Assembly (NCBI RefSeq): GCF_022846255.1
Contig: NZ_AP025682.1
Length of the DNA stretch: 64,000 nucleotides
Source of the DNA: Escherichia coli
Lineage (GTDB): Bacteria; Pseudomonadota; Gammaproteobacteria; Enterobacterales; Enterobacteriaceae
Strand: one strand, 5' to 3'
Shown here: piece by piece, positions 3,103-14,016 of the stretch
How positions within the stretch are numbered: position 1 is the first letter of the stretch
Layout: every line of letters starts with the position of its first letter
Made by a program: the position numbers and the translations under genes
The notes under the pieces: generated by a model
What the model was told of the DNA's origin: nothing
The model's database searches: none
The model's input: only the letters and a program-made list of their open reading frames with translations

Positions 3103-4152
3103 TTTGAAAACTGCCTGTACGGCAGTGAACAGCGCCCGCTTTTTTACCGCGTCAGCGCAGCGTTTCTAAGCTGCCTGTACGGCAGTGAACTCCCTGATTC
3201 AGTTGCGCTCCCCGACGAGCTGTTTCTAAGCTGCCTGTACGGCAGTGAACCGTTGGCGTTTCGCGGCAACAGGTTTTTCAATTTTCTAAGCTGCCTGTAC
3301 GGCAGTGAACGTAGTTTTGATTCCAGCGATAACTGCCTATTTATTTCTAAGCTGCCTGTACGGCAGTGAACGTAGTTTTGATTCCAGCGATAACTGCCTA
3401 TTTATTTCTAAGCTGCCTGTACGGCAGTGAACGATCAGGCCCGGCTTTCCCCACACGTTCGTATTTTCTAAGCTGCCTGTACGGCAGTGAACCGCCTGCC
3501 ATTCAACCTGCAAATAGTTTTCGATTTCTAAGCTGCCTGTACGGCAGTGAACGAACTGTGGCACGAGGTTGCAGGCGTAAGACTTTTCTAAGCTGCCTGT
3601 ACGGCAGTGAACGCCATCTTTGAATATAACGCCCCGATTGTGATTTTCTAAGCTGCCTGTACGGCAGTGAACCCCTACCGTTTTAATAAATGGGATTTGC
3701 ATTATTTCTAAGCTGCCTGTACGGCAGTGAACGCTGAGGTGTTTACAATGCGTGCCGTGCTGGTTTTCTAAGCTGCCTGTACGGCAGTGAACTCTGTTTT
3801 TCGTCAGCAGGATTAAACCAGGCATTTCTAAGCTGCCTGTACGGCAGTGAACTCTCATCAATTACGGGTTCGTTGGCTGGATCTTTTCTAAGCTGCCTGT
3901 ATGGCAGTGAACGTCTTCTGCGCATCCGTACCACTCACCAATGATTTCTAAGCTGCCTGTATGGCAGTGAACTTAATCGGTAACGTTGCTCTAATTCCCC
4001 CTCTTTTCTAAGCTGCCTGTATGGCAGTGAACCCAGCGAGAATTGAGGCTGTTTGCCGTGTGCTTTTCTAAGCTGCCTGTATGGCAGTGAACATAAACGC
4101 GCGCAGGTTGTTGAGGTGCTCGAGTTTCTAAGCTGCCTGTATGGCAGTGAAC
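3103..4152 (-). CRISPR. CRISPR array 1, type I-F repeat; 18 repeats / 17 spacers
   Basis: 28-bp unit TTTCTAAGCTGCCTGTACGGCAGTGAAC on the + strand (reverse complement of the I-F consensus GTTCACTGCCGTACAGGCAGCTTAGAAA) at 60-bp period; repeat starts 3103, 3163, 3223, 3283, 3344, 3405, 3465 ... 4125; spacers 32 bp except a duplicated 33-bp spacer; degenerate terminal repeat at 3103-3130 marks the leader-distal end. Confidence 0.97.
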
Positions 4153-4400
4153 TGGAATAATAGCAGACTATCCGATTGATTTACTGTTAAAACTTACAAA
4201 ATCGCAGATTCAAACCCTTTTTCCAGACTTCAAAACAGAAATAAACAAAATCAATGAGTTACATTTCGCCCTAAAAAAAGGGTCGATTTGGTATTTCTTC
4301 AATCTCATATTTTCTGCATAGCTTTTGATAAACAATTGACCAGAACACATACGGTCATAATCTCCGTCCCGCGAACAGCGTGTTCATTGCGTAACCAAAC
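4153..4400 (-). promoter_or_regulatory. putative CRISPR array 1 leader (AT-rich)
   Basis: AT-rich sequence abutting the conserved end of the array; the degenerate repeat is at the opposite end; promoter not mapped. Confidence 0.45.
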
Positions 4401-4495: not shown

Positions 4496-4583
4496 GGTGA
4501 GGTGTCCGAGTGGCTGAAGGAGCACGCCTGGAAAGTGTGTATACGGCAACGTATCCGGGGTTCGAATCCCCGCCTCACCGCCA
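4496..4583 (+). tRNA. serW: tRNA-Ser (anticodon GGA)
   Basis: 88-nt sequence GGTGAGGTGTCCGAGTGGCTGAAGGAGCACGCCTGGAAAGTGTGTATACGGCAACGTATCCGGGGTTCGAATCCCCGCCTCACCGCCA; long variable arm, CUGGAAA anticodon loop, encoded CCA. Confidence 0.93.
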
Positions 4584-4596
4584 TCTTTAAAGAAGA

Positions 4597-4624
4597 GCTC
4601 GTACGAAAGTACGGGCTTTTTTTT
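4597..4624 (+). terminator. rho-independent terminator downstream of tRNA-Ser
   Basis: hairpin GCTCGTAC-GAAA-GTACGGGC followed by a T8 tract. Confidence 0.55.
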
Positions 4625-4642
4625 CGCATTGATGCACCTTAA

Positions 4643-4677
4643 ATAAAAAACACGTACTTCCTCTTCGAAAGTACGTG
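4643..4677 (-). terminator. terminator candidate for the fimbrial operon (minus strand)
   Basis: perfect 8-bp inverted repeat CACGTACT/AGTACGTG; on the minus strand it is followed by TTTTTTTATTT. Confidence 0.45.
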
Positions 4678-4704
4678 AAAATCAGTGGCTGATTACCATA
4701 CCCA

Positions 4705-5718
4705 CTAGTCGTAGGATACGGCAAATATGGCTTTGCTTTGGACTTCTCCAGGCTGTAGTGCTTCCTCCTTCACGCGGACATATTTCGCGGTAATCGGGAA
4801 GGTGTACTGATTCTCAATGGCCGCCATTTTAGTTAGTTTGTTCATCAGAGTATCACCCAGCTTTAACGGTGTTGTTGCGTTACCATTATAAATCTGGAAC
4901 CCAACCCCCTTAGCACCATTAAGCGATGTGTTTTTCAGAATGGTTCCACTATCATCCCATTCACCGCGCGCAACTTTAAAAGTCACTGGATTAGTCGTGA
5001 CGTTATAAACACTGTCACAATTTAAAACCAGATCTATAGAACCTGATTTCGTGTTATTGGCAGATTGCATCTCACTTACCGTTGTTTCTGGCATTCTTAT
5101 TTCGTAAATCGGTTGCGAAAAACTACAGGTTGTGGGTTTGTGTTTGATGCTAAATTCTATATTCTGAGTGTAAGAAACATCACTATTTAGTCGCCCAGTA
5201 ACCCAACATAAAAGCCATGATATGATATTATTATTGCAAGAGTTATCTGTTAGTATGCTAATAGCGGGGCGCGGGATGGTTATCTTGTCGATATTGGTGG
5301 TTATAGTATGGTCTACTTTACTCGTTGGCCCAACATATTCTGCCTTAAGAGTGAACGGTTTGGTATTTATCACATCCTGAGTGTTATATTCTTTTGGAGA
5401 AGCACCCAAGGAGTCAGTTCCAGTAGAAACAGGAAAACTACTACTCTCAAGGTTAAATTTCATAAAAATTGATTTCCCCGAATCCGACTCTCTAAGTTCA
5501 ACGATATAATCTTTTAACGGTGTTGCATAATACATTTTATCGCTTGCTGCATTACATGTGAACGTATCGACTAAGTTTGTATGAATTACAGCCGTTACCG
5601 TATCTTGTGCCATATCCAGTTCTATCGTTTGGCTTGCTGTTGTATTAGGCCCCAAGGTACATTTAGCCTGCCCCAAAAAAGGCAAAGCCAGTAAAAACAA
5701 AAACCAATATTTCTTCAT
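4705..5718 (-). CDS. fimbrial tip adhesin-like protein (two-domain, FimH-like organisation)
   Basis: ORF 4705..5739; start trimmed to the ATG at 5718 preceded by AAAGGA; signal peptide MKKYWFLFLLALPFLGQA; C-terminal pilin-like end AIFAVSYD; last gene of a chaperone-usher operon. Confidence 0.7.
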   Translation of the reverse strand: MKKYWFLFLLALPFLGQAKCTLGPNTTASQTIELDMAQDTVTAVIHTNLVDTFTCNAASDKMYYATPLKDYIVELRESDSGKSIFMKFNLESSSFPVSTGTDSLGASPKEYNTQDVINTKPFTLKAEYVGPTSKVDHTITTNIDKITIPRPAISILTDNSCNNNIISWLLCWVTGRLNSDVSYTQNIEFSIKHKPTTCSFSQPIYEIRMPETTVSEMQSANNTKSGSIDLVLNCDSVYNVTTNPVTFKVARGEWDDSGTILKNTSLNGAKGVGFQIYNGNATTPLKLGDTLMNKLTKMAAIENQYTFPITAKYVRVKEEALQPGEVQSKAIFAVSYD

Positions 5719-5729
5719 AAACAAATCCT

Positions 5730-8222
5730 TTAACGACAAATATAAACTTTATTCTCATCAATAACGTTATCAAAGGTAATAGTGCAGAATTGTTCCTGCT
5801 GTTTATTAACCGAGACGCGAATCGACGCGGGAACATCATTGGTGCGAATAAATATCCGACTTCCCTGTCCTACTAAGCCCACATTATTGCCACTTTCATC
5901 TTCAACCTCATAACCAAACGGCAACGGAGAGCCATCAGGTCGTTGGGAGATGAAATACCAGGGCTTGCGTTTATCAGTCTCAAACTGCGTCATCACTACC
6001 GCACCACGATAAGGAACGGTGTTTTTACGGTTACCCAGTAGCGCCACATCGCTTTTACTGTCGGCAATATCCAACATCAACGTATTTTCACGATACGGCG
6101 TCAGGTTGTCATAAATAGCGTAGCCTCTGCTATCCGTGGTCAAGTAACGATATCCCTGCACCGCAGCCCCCTCCAGCCCAGGTGCTTTGACAATGGCAAA
6201 CGTATCGGAAAGTCTGGGAGCCAGTGCCACCCCGTCCGACCACGCGACGAAACCGCCTTGAATATTACCGCTAACCTGTTGATATCTTTTCGACTGGCTA
6301 TAGCTGCCACCAATAGTCGCCAATGGCGCACGCCAGGTCAGGTTTCCACCTGCTGTTGTTTCGCTGCCCTGGTGTTGATGGCTCAAGTTTGCCCCGTAGC
6401 TGAACTGATCGCGGCTCCCCGCTACACCGCTGAGGCTGGTATTATTCGACCGATAGCCGTCTTTATCAAAAGTGGTCGAGTTAGAAACAAATAAATCTCG
6501 TCGTTTTTCAGTGATTCCATCGCCCCACGAGAAGGGAATTGAGAAATATAAGTTAATGCGTCTATCTTCGCGGTTATCTTCGTCGTAGGTCTGGCTAACA
6601 GACAAGGTATAACTAAGGCGTTCCCAGGAGTTCGAATAGCTGAGTTGATAATCTTTCCCTGTCCCGCTGCGTTCCCAATAATCCCGCCATTGACCGCTGA
6701 CCGACAGATATCCCCAATTTTCCGGTAATGACTGGTTTATATTTACAGAAAAGCTGTTCTTACGACCAAAATCGTACTGATAATAGTCGGCGATATCATA
6801 AACTGAGTCATCTTCTCGATTATAACTTTTCCTGTTATTTGCCCTCACGTGATCGTTAAAAGTACGATAATCTCGAGAAGAATAACGCCAGGCCGCCAGC
6901 GAAAATTGCGTTCCACTTTGAGAGAGATATTTGTTCCACGCAATCTGATAACTTTGACCATTAAACACATCACCGTTATCTTGTTCACTGTGGGAATGGG
7001 TAAAATCAACAGATACCGCACCAATCGGTGTATTCCATCCCGTGCCGAGAACAAACGATGAGTAATTATCAGACAACTGCGTGCCAGCATAGAGAGTCAG
7101 CAAATTATTAAGGCCATACTGATAGCTTCCCTGAATAAAATCTGACTGATCGCTGGCTCCCTCAATACGGCTACGTCCGACAGCAAATTCATATTTCGAA
7201 ACGCCCGGTTGCAACATATTTGGTACCGATGAATAAGGTACACGATAACGCGACACCGAACCGTCAGCTTCTTTAACGGTAACTTCCAGATCGGCACCAC
7301 CACCTGCAAGTTGCAAATCATCAATGGCGAATGGACCTGGCGGAACTTCTTTCTGGTAAACCACAAAGCCATTTTGTTCGATAGTGACAAGTGCGTTACT
7401 TTGGGCAACACCACGCACCACAGGCGTAAAATTCTGTTTAGAGTTCGGCAACATCTGCATATCGCGCCAAAGGCGTACACCGCGAAAACGCACGGAGTCA
7501 AAAACATCAGAACCGGTATACATTTCACCAGCACGCAATGTGCCAAGAATATGTGGAATTCCGCGCTCCAGATATAACGTGTTACTCTTCCATTTACCGC
7601 TGTTATCGTCACTTTTCGTATAATTGGCATTTGAATGCAACTGCCAGCCCAGCAGATTCAAACCACTATTCAGATTTAAATAGCTACTTTTATTATCTCC
7701 TCCGTGCTTATAATTACTGTAATACTGACTGGCATAATAAGAAGTATATAATGCGTTAATCCCACGATCCCATGCCTCAGGTGGAACATATCCGCGTTCA
7801 TACTCAACAACATAGGCCTGGGGTACACTCAACTTCAGGTTAAAATGCCCAATATCATAGTCAACGCTACCTCCCTGTACTGCATCCCGAAGAGGTACGC
7901 ATTCTACGCCTTTATCAATATTAATTCCTTCAGTGAGGATACCTATTTGCTTTAACTGCTCCCAAGATAAACATGTCGCATCCGGATCATCTTTAATGTC
8001 GACATTATAGTGTCCGCGCCACTGATTATTCAGGTAAACATCCATATCATAGATACCTGGCATCGGCTTATCACTATCAATATGATAGTCAGAAATTTTT
8101 TCCCCATTTAATCCGCCAATCATAAAATGGGTGTCAAATGTTTCATCTTCCGCCCATGCAAGCGACGTTGCCAACACCGACAGGATAGCCAGCGTAATAG
8201 AATTAAGTTTAGACATAATCAA
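5730..8222 (-). CDS. fimbrial outer-membrane usher protein
   Basis: 830-aa ORF with signal peptide; size and position after the chaperone are typical of PapC/FimD-family ushers. Confidence 0.9.
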   Translation of the reverse strand: MIMSKLNSITLAILSVLATSLAWAEDETFDTHFMIGGLNGEKISDYHIDSDKPMPGIYDMDVYLNNQWRGHYNVDIKDDPDATCLSWEQLKQIGILTEGINIDKGVECVPLRDAVQGGSVDYDIGHFNLKLSVPQAYVVEYERGYVPPEAWDRGINALYTSYYASQYYSNYKHGGDNKSSYLNLNSGLNLLGWQLHSNANYTKSDDNSGKWKSNTLYLERGIPHILGTLRAGEMYTGSDVFDSVRFRGVRLWRDMQMLPNSKQNFTPVVRGVAQSNALVTIEQNGFVVYQKEVPPGPFAIDDLQLAGGGADLEVTVKEADGSVSRYRVPYSSVPNMLQPGVSKYEFAVGRSRIEGASDQSDFIQGSYQYGLNNLLTLYAGTQLSDNYSSFVLGTGWNTPIGAVSVDFTHSHSEQDNGDVFNGQSYQIAWNKYLSQSGTQFSLAAWRYSSRDYRTFNDHVRANNRKSYNREDDSVYDIADYYQYDFGRKNSFSVNINQSLPENWGYLSVSGQWRDYWERSGTGKDYQLSYSNSWERLSYTLSVSQTYDEDNREDRRINLYFSIPFSWGDGITEKRRDLFVSNSTTFDKDGYRSNNTSLSGVAGSRDQFSYGANLSHQHQGSETTAGGNLTWRAPLATIGGSYSQSKRYQQVSGNIQGGFVAWSDGVALAPRLSDTFAIVKAPGLEGAAVQGYRYLTTDSRGYAIYDNLTPYRENTLMLDIADSKSDVALLGNRKNTVPYRGAVVMTQFETDKRKPWYFISQRPDGSPLPFGYEVEDESGNNVGLVGQGSRIFIRTNDVPASIRVSVNKQQEQFCTITFDNVIDENKVYICR

Positions 8223-8230
8223 TCCCTGAT

Positions 8231-8911
8231 CTATTTGACGGTTTTTACTTTTTCACTCAAATAGTTCCCATGGTCATCAATCAGCGTAATTGTATATTGA
8301 TTGATGGCTAAGGCTGTGGTGATAGTCTTATCTGACCAGGGGGCTAATAACAACGTTTCGTGATTTATTTTTCCACTTCCCATCAACTCAGGAATAGTTA
8401 TCCAGTTTGCGGAGTTGTTTTTGATATTAATACCACCATTGGCATGCTTAATGCTCAGACGACGAAAACTTTCTTTATCTACGCCAGTAAGTCCCTCTGG
8501 GCGGTAGATAAATTTAATACGATTCTGCATGGCGAATTTTATGCCATTCTTATCTTCTAATTCGGGGCAATTAGGTGGGATGTCTAGCACATTAAGGAAG
8601 AATAGGCTTTCGCGATCTTTTGGTAGTGTATTCGCCAATTTTTTGATTTTGAGTTGTTGCCCTTCCCCCCCTTTTACGTGAGCGACCGGTGGCGTCAACA
8701 CAAACGGAACATGAATTTTTTCTGGGGGTAGACTGGTATCGCCATCATCAATCCATGACTGAACCAGGGCGCTACGATTACCTTCATTCATTAACTGAAC
8801 GGTAATCTCTTTTTTCTTTTCTGGATAAATAACACGAGTGCCGTAGATATAGACACCACTCCACGCAGGCGTGACTATGCCGGCCAGCAAGAAGGCTATT
8901 AATTTTTTCAT
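8231..8911 (-). CDS. fimbrial periplasmic chaperone (PapD/FimC family)
   Basis: 226-aa ORF with signal peptide MKKLIAFLLAGIVTPAWS; size and operon position. Confidence 0.88.
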   Translation of the reverse strand: MKKLIAFLLAGIVTPAWSGVYIYGTRVIYPEKKKEITVQLMNEGNRSALVQSWIDDGDTSLPPEKIHVPFVLTPPVAHVKGGEGQQLKIKKLANTLPKDRESLFFLNVLDIPPNCPELEDKNGIKFAMQNRIKFIYRPEGLTGVDKESFRRLSIKHANGGINIKNNSANWITIPELMGSGKINHETLLLAPWSDKTITTALAINQYTITLIDDHGNYLSEKVKTVK

Positions 8912-8964
8912 TAAACAATCCTTGTTTGAGAAATCGGCGACCGAAGCCGCCGATAAACACGATA

Positions 8965-9513
8965 TTAATCTGTCACGACAGTCATTGTCAGAGCAGAGTT
9001 AACCGGGCCAGCAGTCACCGCATCACCTGATTGCGCGTATTTCGCACTGAAATTTAGTGTATATTCATTAGAGCTGTTTTTTTCTAACTCAATACTTTTA
9101 TCACCGTCAATCTGTTGAGATTGCCCATCTGCACTCTCATAGTAGACAGCAAAACCAGCACCATTTGGGTTTGCCACAGTATTAATGGTGATATCGCTAC
9201 GATTTGCATCAAACTGACTTCTGGAAAACGTAATTCTGGGAGTCTCATCTCCTGTACATTTGACCGTCAGCGGTACAGTTGTTTTATTTGAATAACCATC
9301 ATAAATATAACCAGCGCTCTTACCATCAAATTGATCAGCACCAATATCGTTCATAGCAATAGTAGCCTGGCTATTTCCGATAAATTGACAAGTAGTTCCA
9401 ACCACATTACCGGTAATAACTAACTCACCCTGTTCACTCCCCTCCTCTGCAAAAGCCCCTGCACTCATAAAAAGAGAAGATAATACTGCAACTGCAATAA
9501 TTGAACGTTTCAT
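8965..9513 (-). CDS. fimbrial major subunit (type 1 pilin-like)
   Basis: 182-aa ORF with signal peptide ending AFA, paired Cys residues, first gene of the operon. Confidence 0.85.
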   Translation of the reverse strand: MKRSIIAVAVLSSLFMSAGAFAEEGSEQGELVITGNVVGTTCQFIGNSQATIAMNDIGADQFDGKSAGYIYDGYSNKTTVPLTVKCTGDETPRITFSRSQFDANRSDITINTVANPNGAGFAVYYESADGQSQQIDGDKSIELEKNSSNEYTLNFSAKYAQSGDAVTAGPVNSALTMTVVTD

Positions 9514-9840
9514 AGTCTATTCCTTAACTAATTTATTCCAGGTGATCAAGAGTCTTTTTCCTCTCGGAAATGAATTTCGCAAATTACATTTTCTATCGCA
9601 ATGTAAACAATTTGTTTTTGTGATTTAAATCAAATTATCAAAAGCATATAACAAACAAAAACATCTACAAAAAATATTTTCCTTGTTTACTATTCGGCAT
9701 TATTTGATGTCTTTGCAAGGTAAATTAATACGTATAATTAATTGTGGTTTTTTATTTTAAATAAACATCCGCATACTGATAAAAGTGTAGGGCATTGAAT
9801 TATTTATTCTATTTCCAGCCAGAAATAGGCTTTTCAATAG

Positions 9841-9870
9841 ACAAAAAGACCTGACAGCAAGGCCAGGTCT
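9841..9870 (-). terminator. terminator candidate downstream of cas6f (end of the cas operon)
   Basis: 7-bp stem AGACCTG/CAGGTCT; on the minus strand it is followed by TTTTTGT. Confidence 0.45.
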
Positions 9871-9892
9871 TTTATACATTACAACTTACTAA

Positions 9893-10447
9893 TCAAAACC
9901 AGGGAATAGTGGCGGTTGCGCTTAATCCGTAACTACTAAATTCCCCTTTAACCGGTTCAGTAAGCAAATCACCATGACGGATAAACAGCTTGAACTGCTG
10001 CTGACTCGACAAACTATTCATATTAAGAAAGGGTAAATCGGTCCGCTGTTCAGCCTGCGTCGCCAGTCGCTCAATCGCCTGTTCTTCAGTTAGCCAGCCT
10101 TTTTTCACTGAACGCCTTAACAGACGCTGAGGGTTACTTTTTACCTGTACACGACTTACGACTCGCCAGCCTTTAATTTCAGGTACTAGCGTGACAGGCG
10201 AACATTGGCAGTAATCAGTAAGCCCTTTACGCCACGTAGAGGCTTCAAGTTCTTGCAATGCGGGGGCACTGCCGTGCAAGCGTAAACGCGCTCCCGGCGT
10301 AACATTCACGTCCGGGAAACTCACGCCGATATCACCTTGCCCTCTTGCACCTAATGCCCGATGCAATTTGGCAAATAACGCCGCCATCAACATTTCGCTC
10401 GAAAATTCAGGATCTGGCAGAACGCGGATCTCAAGGTAGTGATCCAT
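9893..10447 (-). CDS. cas6f: Cas6f / Csy4 crRNA endoribonuclease
   Basis: ORF 9893..10489 trimmed to MDHYLEIRVLPDPEF..., the recalled Csy4 N-terminus; AGGAG RBS 7 nt upstream of the ATG at 10447. Confidence 0.92.
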   Translation of the reverse strand: MDHYLEIRVLPDPEFSSEMLMAALFAKLHRALGARGQGDIGVSFPDVNVTPGARLRLHGSAPALQELEASTWRKGLTDYCQCSPVTLVPEIKGWRVVSRVQVKSNPQRLLRRSVKKGWLTEEQAIERLATQAEQRTDLPFLNMNSLSSQQQFKLFIRHGDLLTEPVKGEFSSYGLSATATIPWF

Positions 10448-12393: not shown

Positions 12394-13697
12394 TTCAGCG
12401 CCTCCTGCAAAACAGCTTCCATTTCACGCATCCGTTGAGCGAACAGAGACTGGCTGCGCCATTCTCTTTGCTCGACAGCGCCCACGTCGAAACTGGATTT
12501 TTTCAGGCGATAGTTGAGCCAGCGCGCAAAATCATCGGCCACCGCCCCCTGCCAGTCGTTTTTCTCCCGCTCCAGTTTGAAAACCTCATCGGACAGGCTT
12601 CGCCACGGATCCAGCCAAAGCTGCTGATGGCGAGGTAAATCTTGCGATTGCGCTGACCATCCCTGCCATTTTTCTTGCTGAAAAGCGGATGCCTGCATGA
12701 ACAGCAGATCGATCAACTCATCAATATATTTCGCCCGCGCAGTTCGGATATGAACATTATTTATGTCAACCTTCAACAGGTAAGTCATCCGGGCGATAAT
12801 GCCCGAAGCCGCCCTATTGAAATCGCCGCGTAAGGCAAAAATACTGAGCATGTTTTGTGGTGCGCGATCCAGCGTCGCCCAGGTAGGCGGCATTGACGGC
12901 AACAGCCAGACGCGCCCCCCACGCACACTATTGAGCAATGAAATATTTTGCGGTTTTGTGCCTCCGAAATGCATTTCAGCAAGATTCGGGAAACGAATAT
13001 CTGGCTGTGAGTGCCATTTACCTGCTTTGTGCGCTTCGCGAATGGCTTTCGATTCCTCACTAAAGCGCACGGCGGTTAGCTTTTCATACATCGCCTGCGC
13101 CAGTGAACTGGAAAACAGTGGGCATAAGAGGTGATAACCATCCGCAACAGGGAAATAGATTTGTTTTGCCAGTTTATGGCTGGCAGGCCGTCCAGTTGTC
13201 CATGCCTGGCTAAACCCAGCTACCCACTGCTCCAGTTGCGCTTTATCCTCTGCAAACGTACTTAATGCCTGATAATCACCACGCTTCAGGCTGGCAAGCA
13301 GTGAATCTCCGTTCACATCAGTTTGTAGCAACTTTGCGACGTCAAGTGCAGCGGCGTTACCAATCGCGTCAGTAGCGACATTCGCCAACGATGCCGTGTT
13401 TAAATAGCTTTCGTTAGCGGAGGTTTCCAGATAAAAGCTACTGGCTTTAGAATCACCATGACTGAATTTAGCGCCATGAGTGACTAATTTGATTTGCCCG
13501 GCACGCTTTGCCGCATCCGTTAACCAGTGACGAGGCAGGTAGCGTGCCTCGAGTTCCTGCCGCTCCTGAGCGATGACGCTGGCATCCTCGCCCTGTTCCA
13601 GTCGCTTTGTTGCTTCTTTTTCAAAGGCCTCGACTTTGGGTTGCCTTCGCGAAGCGATATAGTCAGTGATAAATTGTATTAGCGCCGTTTTTTCCAT
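12390..13697 (-). CDS. cas8f: Cas8f / Csy1 (large subunit)
   Basis: 435-aa ORF; AGGAG RBS upstream; operon position. Confidence 0.9.
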   Translation of the reverse strand: MEKTALIQFITDYIASRRQPKVEAFEKEATKRLEQGEDASVIAQERQELEARYLPRHWLTDAAKRAGQIKLVTHGAKFSHGDSKASSFYLETSANESYLNTASLANVATDAIGNAAALDVAKLLQTDVNGDSLLASLKRGDYQALSTFAEDKAQLEQWVAGFSQAWTTGRPASHKLAKQIYFPVADGYHLLCPLFSSSLAQAMYEKLTAVRFSEESKAIREAHKAGKWHSQPDIRFPNLAEMHFGGTKPQNISLLNSVRGGRVWLLPSMPPTWATLDRAPQNMLSIFALRGDFNRAASGIIARMTYLLKVDINNVHIRTARAKYIDELIDLLFMQASAFQQEKWQGWSAQSQDLPRHQQLWLDPWRSLSDEVFKLEREKNDWQGAVADDFARWLNYRLKKSSFDVGAVEQREWRSQSLFAQRMREMEAVLQEALK

Positions 13698-13940
13698 CTC
13701 GGCTCCTTTCGTTAATCCATCAAATTGAAGTTGCTCCCTGACTTCACTGAAAAATCTCCGTAGCCCAACCAGGCTTCAGTACAACGACGCATACAGCAAA
13801 AGGGACAACACCCGTGGTGATAATCATGGATAGCTCACCTAGAGGTATCTACGTTTTAATCTAGTAAAATCCATGCAATAACCAATAGTGATATTACCAT
13901 GCATGAAATATTTGCCACACAATGATTTAAAAACTAACAT

Positions 13941-14016
13941 TCACGCACTGCCGTTGGCAGCTTAGAAATAGAGGTATCTCCGGATACGGACTTGTAAACT
14001 GCCGTACAGGCAGCCC
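13941..14016 (+). repeat. two degenerate CRISPR repeat-like sequences in the cas3-csy1 intergenic gap, inverted relative to both arrays
   Basis: 13946-13968 CACTGCCGT-T-GGCAGCTTAGAAA (loop shortened from 5 to 3 nt); 13998-14014 ACTGCCGTACAGGCAGC (17-nt exact repeat core); consensus orientation is on the + strand, opposite to the arrays. Confidence 0.6.

Follow-up and report, generated by a model that had tools for sequence, protein, structure and literature searches.

The DNA analysed here, a 64,000-nucleotide (nt) window of an Escherichia coli genome (RefSeq assembly GCF_022846255.1, contig NZ_AP025682.1), carries a four-gene chaperone-usher pilus operon between the serine transfer RNA (tRNA) gene serW and cas6f, the last gene of a type I-F cas operon. 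The four open reading frames are intact, lie on the minus strand and together occupy positions 4705-9513; signal peptides are present. In order of transcription they encode the major pilin (8965-9513; 182 amino acids), which is the hypervariable allele position of the locus, a PapD-like periplasmic chaperone (8231-8911; 226 amino acids), the outer-membrane usher (5730-8222; 830 amino acids, or 828 if read from the ATG at position 8216) and a two-domain tip adhesin (4705-5739; 344 amino acids, or 337 from the ATG at 5718). The adhesin consists of a signal peptide, an N-terminal receptor-binding domain (RBD) and, at its C terminus, a pilin domain.

Three of the four proteins score above the cut-offs of NCBIfam models. 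The major pilin reaches 226.6 bits against the YehD-type pilin equivalog (cut-off 136) and also matches the PF00419 Fimbrial domain, the chaperone reaches 393.8 bits against PRK15218 (cut-off 372), with PF00345 present on near-identical proteins, and the usher reaches 1500.5 bits against PRK15217 (cut-off 933). PF13954 (PapC_N), PF00577 (Usher) and PF13953 (PapC_C) are found on the usher of another locus of this arrangement (L008), which is 99.6% identical to that of the window. In the adhesin, the Pfam Fimbrial domain covers the C-terminal residues 197-344 and is the only Pfam domain; the score against the NCBIfam YehA model PRK15216 is 25.1 bits, below the cut-off of 452. The locus thus contains the components of a classical chaperone-usher operon, namely chaperone, usher, major pilin with signal peptide and two-domain tip adhesin, and positions 4630-9843 are predicted to form a complete, minimal pilus operon of the Yeh/Stc/Yhl group. 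A first-pass annotation of the window had proposed both a four-gene chaperone-usher operon between tRNA-Ser and cas6f and a two-domain adhesin-like gene within it, and the family matches and the domain layout of the adhesin bear this out.

Both edges of the operon can be located. On the left, serW, a plus-strand tRNA-Ser(GGA) gene (4496-4583) and the sole tRNA found by ARAGORN, anchors the locus. Sequence and hairpin analysis places its plus-strand terminator at 4600-4629, with a hairpin at 4600-4613, a T-run and a conserved 'CGCATT' segment. In K-12, which has neither cas nor pilus genes at this site, serW is followed by the identical 'TTTTTTTTCGCATT' and then by a remnant CRISPR repeat. Sequence shared with K-12 stops at this terminator/'CGCATT' segment, and the left edge of the fimbrial segment is therefore placed at about 4630, some 46 bp past the end of the tRNA. 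A second, terminator-like hairpin on the minus strand (4651-4677), with an 11-bp stem followed by a T-run, lies 28 bp beyond the stop codon of the adhesin gene and is probably the end of the pilus transcript. On the right, the segment ends at the minus-strand terminator hairpin of the cas operon (9844-9873; 12-bp stem), 20 bp past the cas6f stop codon. The minus-strand gene cas6f (csy4; 9893-10447) is the constant right neighbour at every native locus examined, that is, every locus at the serW-cas6f site, and is followed in the window by csy3, csy2, csy1, cas3f and cas1f, reaching 18244.

The interval between serW and cas6f (4584-9892) has a GC content of 41.9%, compared with 52.3% in the core genes to its left and 50.5% in the cas genes. 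Upstream of the operon, the 379 bp at 9514-9892 fall to 28.5% GC; the upstream or promoter region within the fimbrial segment (9514-9843, minus strand) contains one sigma-70-like site at 9782-9754. The operon separates the end of CRISPR array 1 (4152) from cas6f by 5.74 kb. In E. coli TW10828, which has the I-F system and no pilus operon at this site, the same distance is about 540 bp, with serW 112 bp from cas6f. The first-pass annotation had described an operon AT-richer than its flanks, an AT-rich upstream region of about 380 bp and a split of roughly 5.7 kb between array and cas genes; the measured GC content and distances agree on each count.

The position beside a tRNA gene raises the possibility of a classical tRNA-targeted island that integrated at the serW 3' end and later lost its integrase and attachment repeat. 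The start some 46 bp past the tRNA and the lower GC content would fit such an origin, as would the occurrence of related operons in two integrase islands, one of pheV type (L025) and one adjoining glyW-cysT-leuZ. Against it, the interval 4584-9892 holds no integrase or recombinase reading frame and no regulator gene, and the 25-nt tRNA 3' end has its only copy in the tRNA itself when the whole window is searched with up to three mismatches, both as the first-pass annotation had reported. At its right edge stands the cas terminator, and nothing resembling an attachment site is present there. Tandem copies of the tRNA end do occur in Escherichia whittamii (L006, 11116-11718) and Escherichia sp. 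E1V33 (L007, 10355-10966), where 3.3 units of 182 bp, each comprising the last 19 nt of the tRNA and the terminator, lie between serW and the pilus operon; the window has no such units. They score 41-42 bits against the Rfam family RtT (RF00391; threshold 45), resemble the repeats of the tyrT operon and are present in 9 of 5,426 complete E. coli genomes. We rejected them as attachment sites, since they are RtT-like tandem units. Identical left and right edges in five species also fit recombination across the flanks better than repeated integration. An island of this kind is highly improbable, and the idea of tRNA-targeted integration found no support beyond the adjacency to the tRNA.

Relation to the Yeh and Yhl pili

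The first-pass annotation could not place the operon among the fimbrial operons of K-12. It can be placed: sequence comparison points to a paralogue of K-12 yehDCBA (yehABCD in the naming of the Hultgren lab), within the Yeh/Stc/Yhl group. The two operons share their four-gene order and have proteins of nearly equal size, and the NCBIfam models for the usher, chaperone and pilin of K-12 Yeh are also matched by the window proteins. Identity to K-12 Yeh is 34-36% for the pilin, 54-55% for the chaperone, 64% for the usher and 24% for the adhesin, the last over the pilin domain only. However, Yeh is located at metG-mrp-yehE...rcnB, whereas the window operon is located between serW and cas6f, and the yehE (DUF2574) gene of the Yeh locus is not part of the window operon. 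The operon was rejected as the K-12 Yeh orthologue on the grounds of this location and of the adhesin score of 25.1 bits against the YehA cut-off of 452.

A second candidate was Yhl ('Yeh-like'), a pilus of phylogroup E E. coli. We assume that the OI-1 operon of O157 Sakai (nhaR-rpsT) is Yhl; its pilin, chaperone and usher are 36%, 50% and 56% identical to those of the window, and its adhesin gene is a pseudogene. The RBD of the Yhl adhesin, for which a structure is available (PDB 8V9V), shows 11% identity to the window RBD in a structural alignment. With this value and the 56% usher identity, Yhl was rejected as well.

Among operons with a fixed place in the chromosome, the closest relative is an unnamed one of some Salmonella enterica and Citrobacter at the yeh/stc site (metG-mrp-yehE...rcnB), with identities of 64-65% for the pilin, 77% for the chaperone, 82% for the usher and 59-70% for the full-length adhesin. 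Its chaperone and pilin, the two proteins scanned, match PRK15218 and the YehD-type models, while the chaperone reaches 292 bits against the S. Typhimurium StcB model (cut-off 500) and is not of the StcB type. The surroundings differ: the Salmonella/Citrobacter operon has yehE upstream and no cas genes nearby, in contrast to the window operon with its adjacent cas genes and no yehE. The window operon may be a relocated relative of this yeh/stc-site operon, with the direction of relocation itself a matter of inference.

When the adhesin sequence was searched against the PDB, no match was returned, neither 8V9V nor 9N4G, the RBD structure of the K-12 Yeh adhesin. A fold search nevertheless assigned its RBD (about residues 19-192) to the Yeh/Yhl fold, with 11-13% sequence identity to the Yeh and Yhl RBDs. 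The YehD RBD is described with a two-helix flap (PMC12778044); at this position the model of the window adhesin has one main helix (147-155) and a short turn. Reported ligands are plant pectin for YehD and gut mucosa for YhlD (PMC12778044). Because RBD identity to Yeh and Yhl is only 11-13%, the window adhesin probably recognizes a different ligand. The operon is not K-12 Yeh and probably not Yhl, and its sequence marks it as a distinct third type in the Yeh/Stc/Yhl group, with an RBD of its own.

By analogy with the well-studied chaperone-usher pathway, the four products would be exported through Sec, the chaperone would cap each subunit in the periplasm, and the usher would polymerize the subunits by donor-strand exchange, the two-domain adhesin first and the major pilin thereafter. 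This order would position the N-terminal domain of the adhesin at the pilus tip. The upstream region contains no fimS-like inverted repeats that could form an invertible switch and, with its single GATC, no paired Dam sites of the Pap kind. Since the upstream GC content is 28.5% and other cryptic E. coli pili are known to behave in this way, expression is probably silenced or conditional in the manner of H-NS.

In the protein collection, the 90%-identity cluster of the window major pilin includes, in addition, many Csy3 proteins 333 amino acids long. This looks like an artefact of database clustering and not like biology.

Distribution and exchange at the native site

In a survey of 5,426 complete RefSeq E. 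coli genomes, the operon was found at the serW-cas6f site in none (0/5,426). A type I-F cas locus is present at the serW site in 202, all of them without pilus genes there. The operon is accessory and rare in E. coli, and typical E. coli lack it at this site; the first-pass annotation, which had raised the question of whether it is core or accessory, was right to treat it as accessory and to group its proteins with the chaperone-usher families. Core genes of the window are 97.3-99.4% identical to E. coli per kilobase, and the best complete RefSeq E. coli matches reach 98.3-98.4% over a 24-kb core. Whole-segment figures are lower (91-94%) because of the CRISPR arrays and the variable cas genes. 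The core-gene identities make the window a member of E. coli broadly defined, of a lineage without a representative among the 5,426 genomes, and speak against the non-coli Escherichia that the whole-segment figures alone would suggest.

Native loci were collected through protein look-ups. They comprise E. coli-labelled genome and metagenome contigs (L008-L015), contigs labelled only as Escherichia (L040-42), E. marmotae (L028-30 and L044-47), E. whittamii (L006), Escherichia sp. E1V33 (L007) and E. albertii (L048-50). Apart from the IS1-bounded copies described below, all loci with readable flanks have the same arrangement, csy1-3 and cas6f, the four pilus genes, tRNA-Ser and CRISPR, then infA-aat-cydCD. 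Among the loci read, no native copy of the operon lacks adjacent I-F cas genes.

The components of the operon differ in their apparent age. The window was compared with E. albertii and with E. marmotae for nonsynonymous (dN) and synonymous (dS) divergence. The dN/dS ratio is 0.05-0.11 for the usher, indicating purifying selection, and 0.11-0.15 for the chaperone. Usher dS is 0.12-0.18, far below that of aat (0.52-0.60) and of the cas genes (0.29-0.49), and the usher was therefore exchanged between the species after they split. In the major pilin dS rises to 0.54, and in the adhesin RBD it is 1.3-1.6 between allele types. At least four pilin allele types, 46-97% identical to the window pilin, and at least three adhesin types occupy the native site. 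Besides the window type, the adhesins include an E. marmotae type (77%) and an E. albertii type (66%); the pilin-domain end of the E. albertii type is 97% identical to the window at the nucleotide level despite its 66% overall. We read these sequence patterns as a mosaic, in which the usher and the adhesin pilin domain would form a conserved core recently shared across species by recombination in the flanks, and the major pilin and adhesin RBD would be old, very divergent alleles. The operon is probably kept or exchanged at serW-cas6f by homologous recombination across the conserved flanks, and it has no mobility genes of its own.

The first-pass annotation had offered two origins, an old tRNA-adjacent acquisition or arrival together with the cas block. 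The first is in part borne out, as the site is shared by E. albertii, E. marmotae, E. whittamii and E1V33, although the usher has been exchanged recently. The second would have the operon arrive jointly with the I-F cas block, as a composite island that is inherited as a unit. It is consistent with the I-F cas genes adjacent to the operon at every native locus seen, including deep-branching E. albertii, with the lack of any operon-without-cas locus among those read and with cas-less K-12, which has neither. Yet the GC contents of operon and cas genes differ (41.9% against 50.5%), and so does their divergence. Between L008 and the window, the pilus operon is 99.3-99.9% identical and cas6f-csy1 94.3%, in line with usher dS values below those of the cas genes. 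The IS1 unit moves the operon without cas, and the closest relatives in Salmonella and Citrobacter stand at the cas-free yeh/stc site. The synteny comparison called for in the first-pass annotation gave a divided answer: the operon always accompanies cas at the native loci read, but the 202 E. coli genomes with cas alone show cas varying independently of it. Cas and pilus modules have separable histories, and joint arrival is unlikely.

Several features of the neighbouring I-F system were also observed. CRISPR array 1 (3103-4152) has 18 repeats, is transcribed from the minus strand and has its leader on the 4153-4400 side. Its 33-nt spacer at 3311-3343 is repeated at 3372-3404. The five leader-proximal repeats (3885-4152) share one C-to-T change (CTGTATGGCAG), which looks like a mutation of the first repeat that was copied with each later spacer acquisition. 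In the cas operon, the kilobase at 13001-14000, covering the 5' part of csy1 and the cas3-csy1 spacer, is 80.6% identical to TW10828, compared with 91-98% in the neighbouring kilobases. At the protein level Csy1 is 84% identical, a divergent allele inside an otherwise similar I-F operon.

An IS1-bounded copy on phage-plasmids and islands

Away from the native site, a copy of the operon bounded by the insertion sequence IS1 is present in 31 of the 5,426 complete E. coli genomes, at about 94% identity to the window. Homology to the window begins in the serW anticodon loop, at 4527-4529 in all 30 matches listed of the 31 (coverage at least 80%) and at 4527-4532 across all E. coli copies including those read. 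At the other side, the payload ends at 9829 in every IS1-bounded copy with its ends read, which puts the right-hand limit of homology in the window at 9829-9830. Both ends abut the right terminal repeats of IS1, facing inward, with identical inner junctions. The unit retains the last 57 nt of serW together with the terminator, and all four genes are annotated as intact in the IS1-borne copies examined. The shared junctions and the serW fragment show that the unit was excised from a serW-pilus-cas6f locus like that of the window. IS1 insertion at two points, in the anticodon loop of serW and about 60 bp from cas6f, cut it out. The 57-nt serW fragment is an unusually clean record of the origin of a mobile cargo.

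The E. coli copies, as distinct from the window, are comparable to IS1 composite transposons of the Tn9 type, which are likewise bounded by two IS1. They differ in that the cargo is a pilus operon with a 57-nt tRNA fragment and not a resistance gene, that the two IS1 elements lie in inverted orientation, right ends inward, and that no target-site duplication was found. Relative to the window, identity of the IS1-borne proteins is 98.6% for the usher, 97.6% for the adhesin, 84% for the chaperone and 54% for the pilin. The adhesin has its nearest match in the window, whereas E. marmotae L029 has the nearest chaperone and pilin (93% and 90% nucleotide identity), and the T-stem of the IS1-borne tRNA fragment (GGGGG/CCCCC) has the K-12/E. 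albertii form. At the junction of the IS1 end and the serW fragment (L001, 11930-12056; L002, 11915-12057), RefSeq annotation by the Prokaryotic Genome Annotation Pipeline lists a 'tRNA-Ser' or 'tRNA-OTHER' of 127-143 nt. ARAGORN finds no tRNA at this junction, and the call is probably an annotation artefact.

Taken together, we are confident that the account as a whole is correct, from the identity of the operon and its standing as a distinct type to its history at a fixed site and its capture by IS1. The observations of the first-pass annotation held in every particular and its interpretation in part; the IS1-captured phage-plasmid copy lay outside what the window could show.

Several points weigh against this account. 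The census of native loci is a sample and non-exhaustive. Assignment of the usher to clade gamma-4 is assumed from its similarity to YehB and from the literature, in which Yeh is placed in that clade (PMC12778044, PMC5216030); the proxies for it are the identities of 64% to YehB, 56% to the Sakai OI-1 usher and 82% to the Salmonella yeh/stc-site usher, with the PRK15217 cut-off passed. None of the compared loci proved to be the exact source of the IS1 copy, and the cargo of this copy is mosaic. No 9-bp target-site duplication is present on plasmid pBS15R-A_1, where the outer flanks are AAAGCCTGC and GAATGTACA, and the chromosomal copies are rearranged. Transposition as a whole unit is likely, although IS1-mediated recombination would yield the same structure. 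Some lineages carry broken copies, with a stop codon in the pilin of E1V33, a split pilin in E. marmotae L029 and no usher gene called in L047, which makes the operon dispensable and potentially cryptic.

The broken copies also raise the question of a non-functional remnant in decay. An upstream region so AT-rich that it suggests silencing, and the loss of the operon from this site in typical E. coli, would agree with decay. Against this, the window has four intact frames with signal peptides, the cross-species dN/dS ratios of usher and chaperone are low, and 31 complete E. coli genomes have regained the operon on mobile elements, the four genes being annotated as intact in the copies examined. 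Decay of this kind is improbable.

The carriers of the IS1 unit are of two kinds. PLSDB contains 15 plasmids with the unit. Plasmid carriers are 60-153 kb in size, and those examined encode P1 tail-fibre, Gp16, LydB and DarA domains; the structural, lysis and Dar genes of P1 on the E. coli carrier plasmids liken them to P1-like phage-plasmids. On pBS15R-A_1 (L002, 11235-18069), the unit has lydA/lydB on one side and the tail-fibre assembly genes on the other. Phage P1 has its cin invertase at this position. No cin gene is annotated at the IS1-unit site of pBS15R-A_1, and tail-fibre switching may have been lost in these P1-like elements. The chromosomal copies (L001, L051, L052 and L053) are situated in an integrase island adjoining glyW-cysT-leuZ. 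This island is rich in defence genes, encoding type I restriction-modification, an M48 peptidase, DUF262 proteins and Hhe, and its duplicated IS1 and M48-gene fragments point to IS1-mediated rearrangement.

A sister pilus variant, with an usher 89% and an adhesin 64-65% identical to those of the window, is found on plasmids that range from 106 to 218 kb; in the 114-kb plasmid examined, the helicase-primase module shows 91% identity to that of phage SSU5. The sister variant also occurs in the pheV-type integrase island (L025), for which the tRNA was deduced from the neighbouring genes. A Phd/YefM-Doc(Fic) toxin-antitoxin pair always lies just past its adhesin gene (L025, 3748-9380; L031, 6281-11886). 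That SSU5-like phage-plasmids and the pheV-type island alike carry this pair suggests that the sister variant and Phd/Doc move together.

No copy of the operon was found in the phage collection. The searchable papers on P1-like plasmids do not mention pilus operons as cargo of the two phage-plasmid families. An incomplete literature search, which leaves novelty unproven, found no paper on the operon at clpA-infA or on P1-like plasmids, nor on a genus-wide fixed site with cassette-like variation or on the IS1 unit with its serW fossil. The genes of the operon are already annotated generically in public records. Whether the serW-cas6f operon is the source of an adhesin module now spread by phage-plasmid infection is a tentative proposal, and we regard it as possible but doubtful.

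These findings leave the general understanding of chaperone-usher pili unaltered. The operon adds a third, uncharacterized adhesin type to the Yeh/Yhl structural class, at a locus where the surface-exposed parts, present as old alleles that can be exchanged, flank a conserved assembly core. As the targets of YehD and YhlD are very different, the ligand of this adhesin could inform the niches of E. albertii, E. marmotae and the cryptic Escherichia lineages. If spread by phage-plasmids is real, P1-like elements carrying the IS1 unit and SSU5-like elements carrying the sister variant would be giving livestock and human E. coli new pili, delivering swappable pilin and receptor-binding alleles. This would amount to lysogenic conversion of adhesion and of tissue or host tropism, and not of antibiotic resistance.

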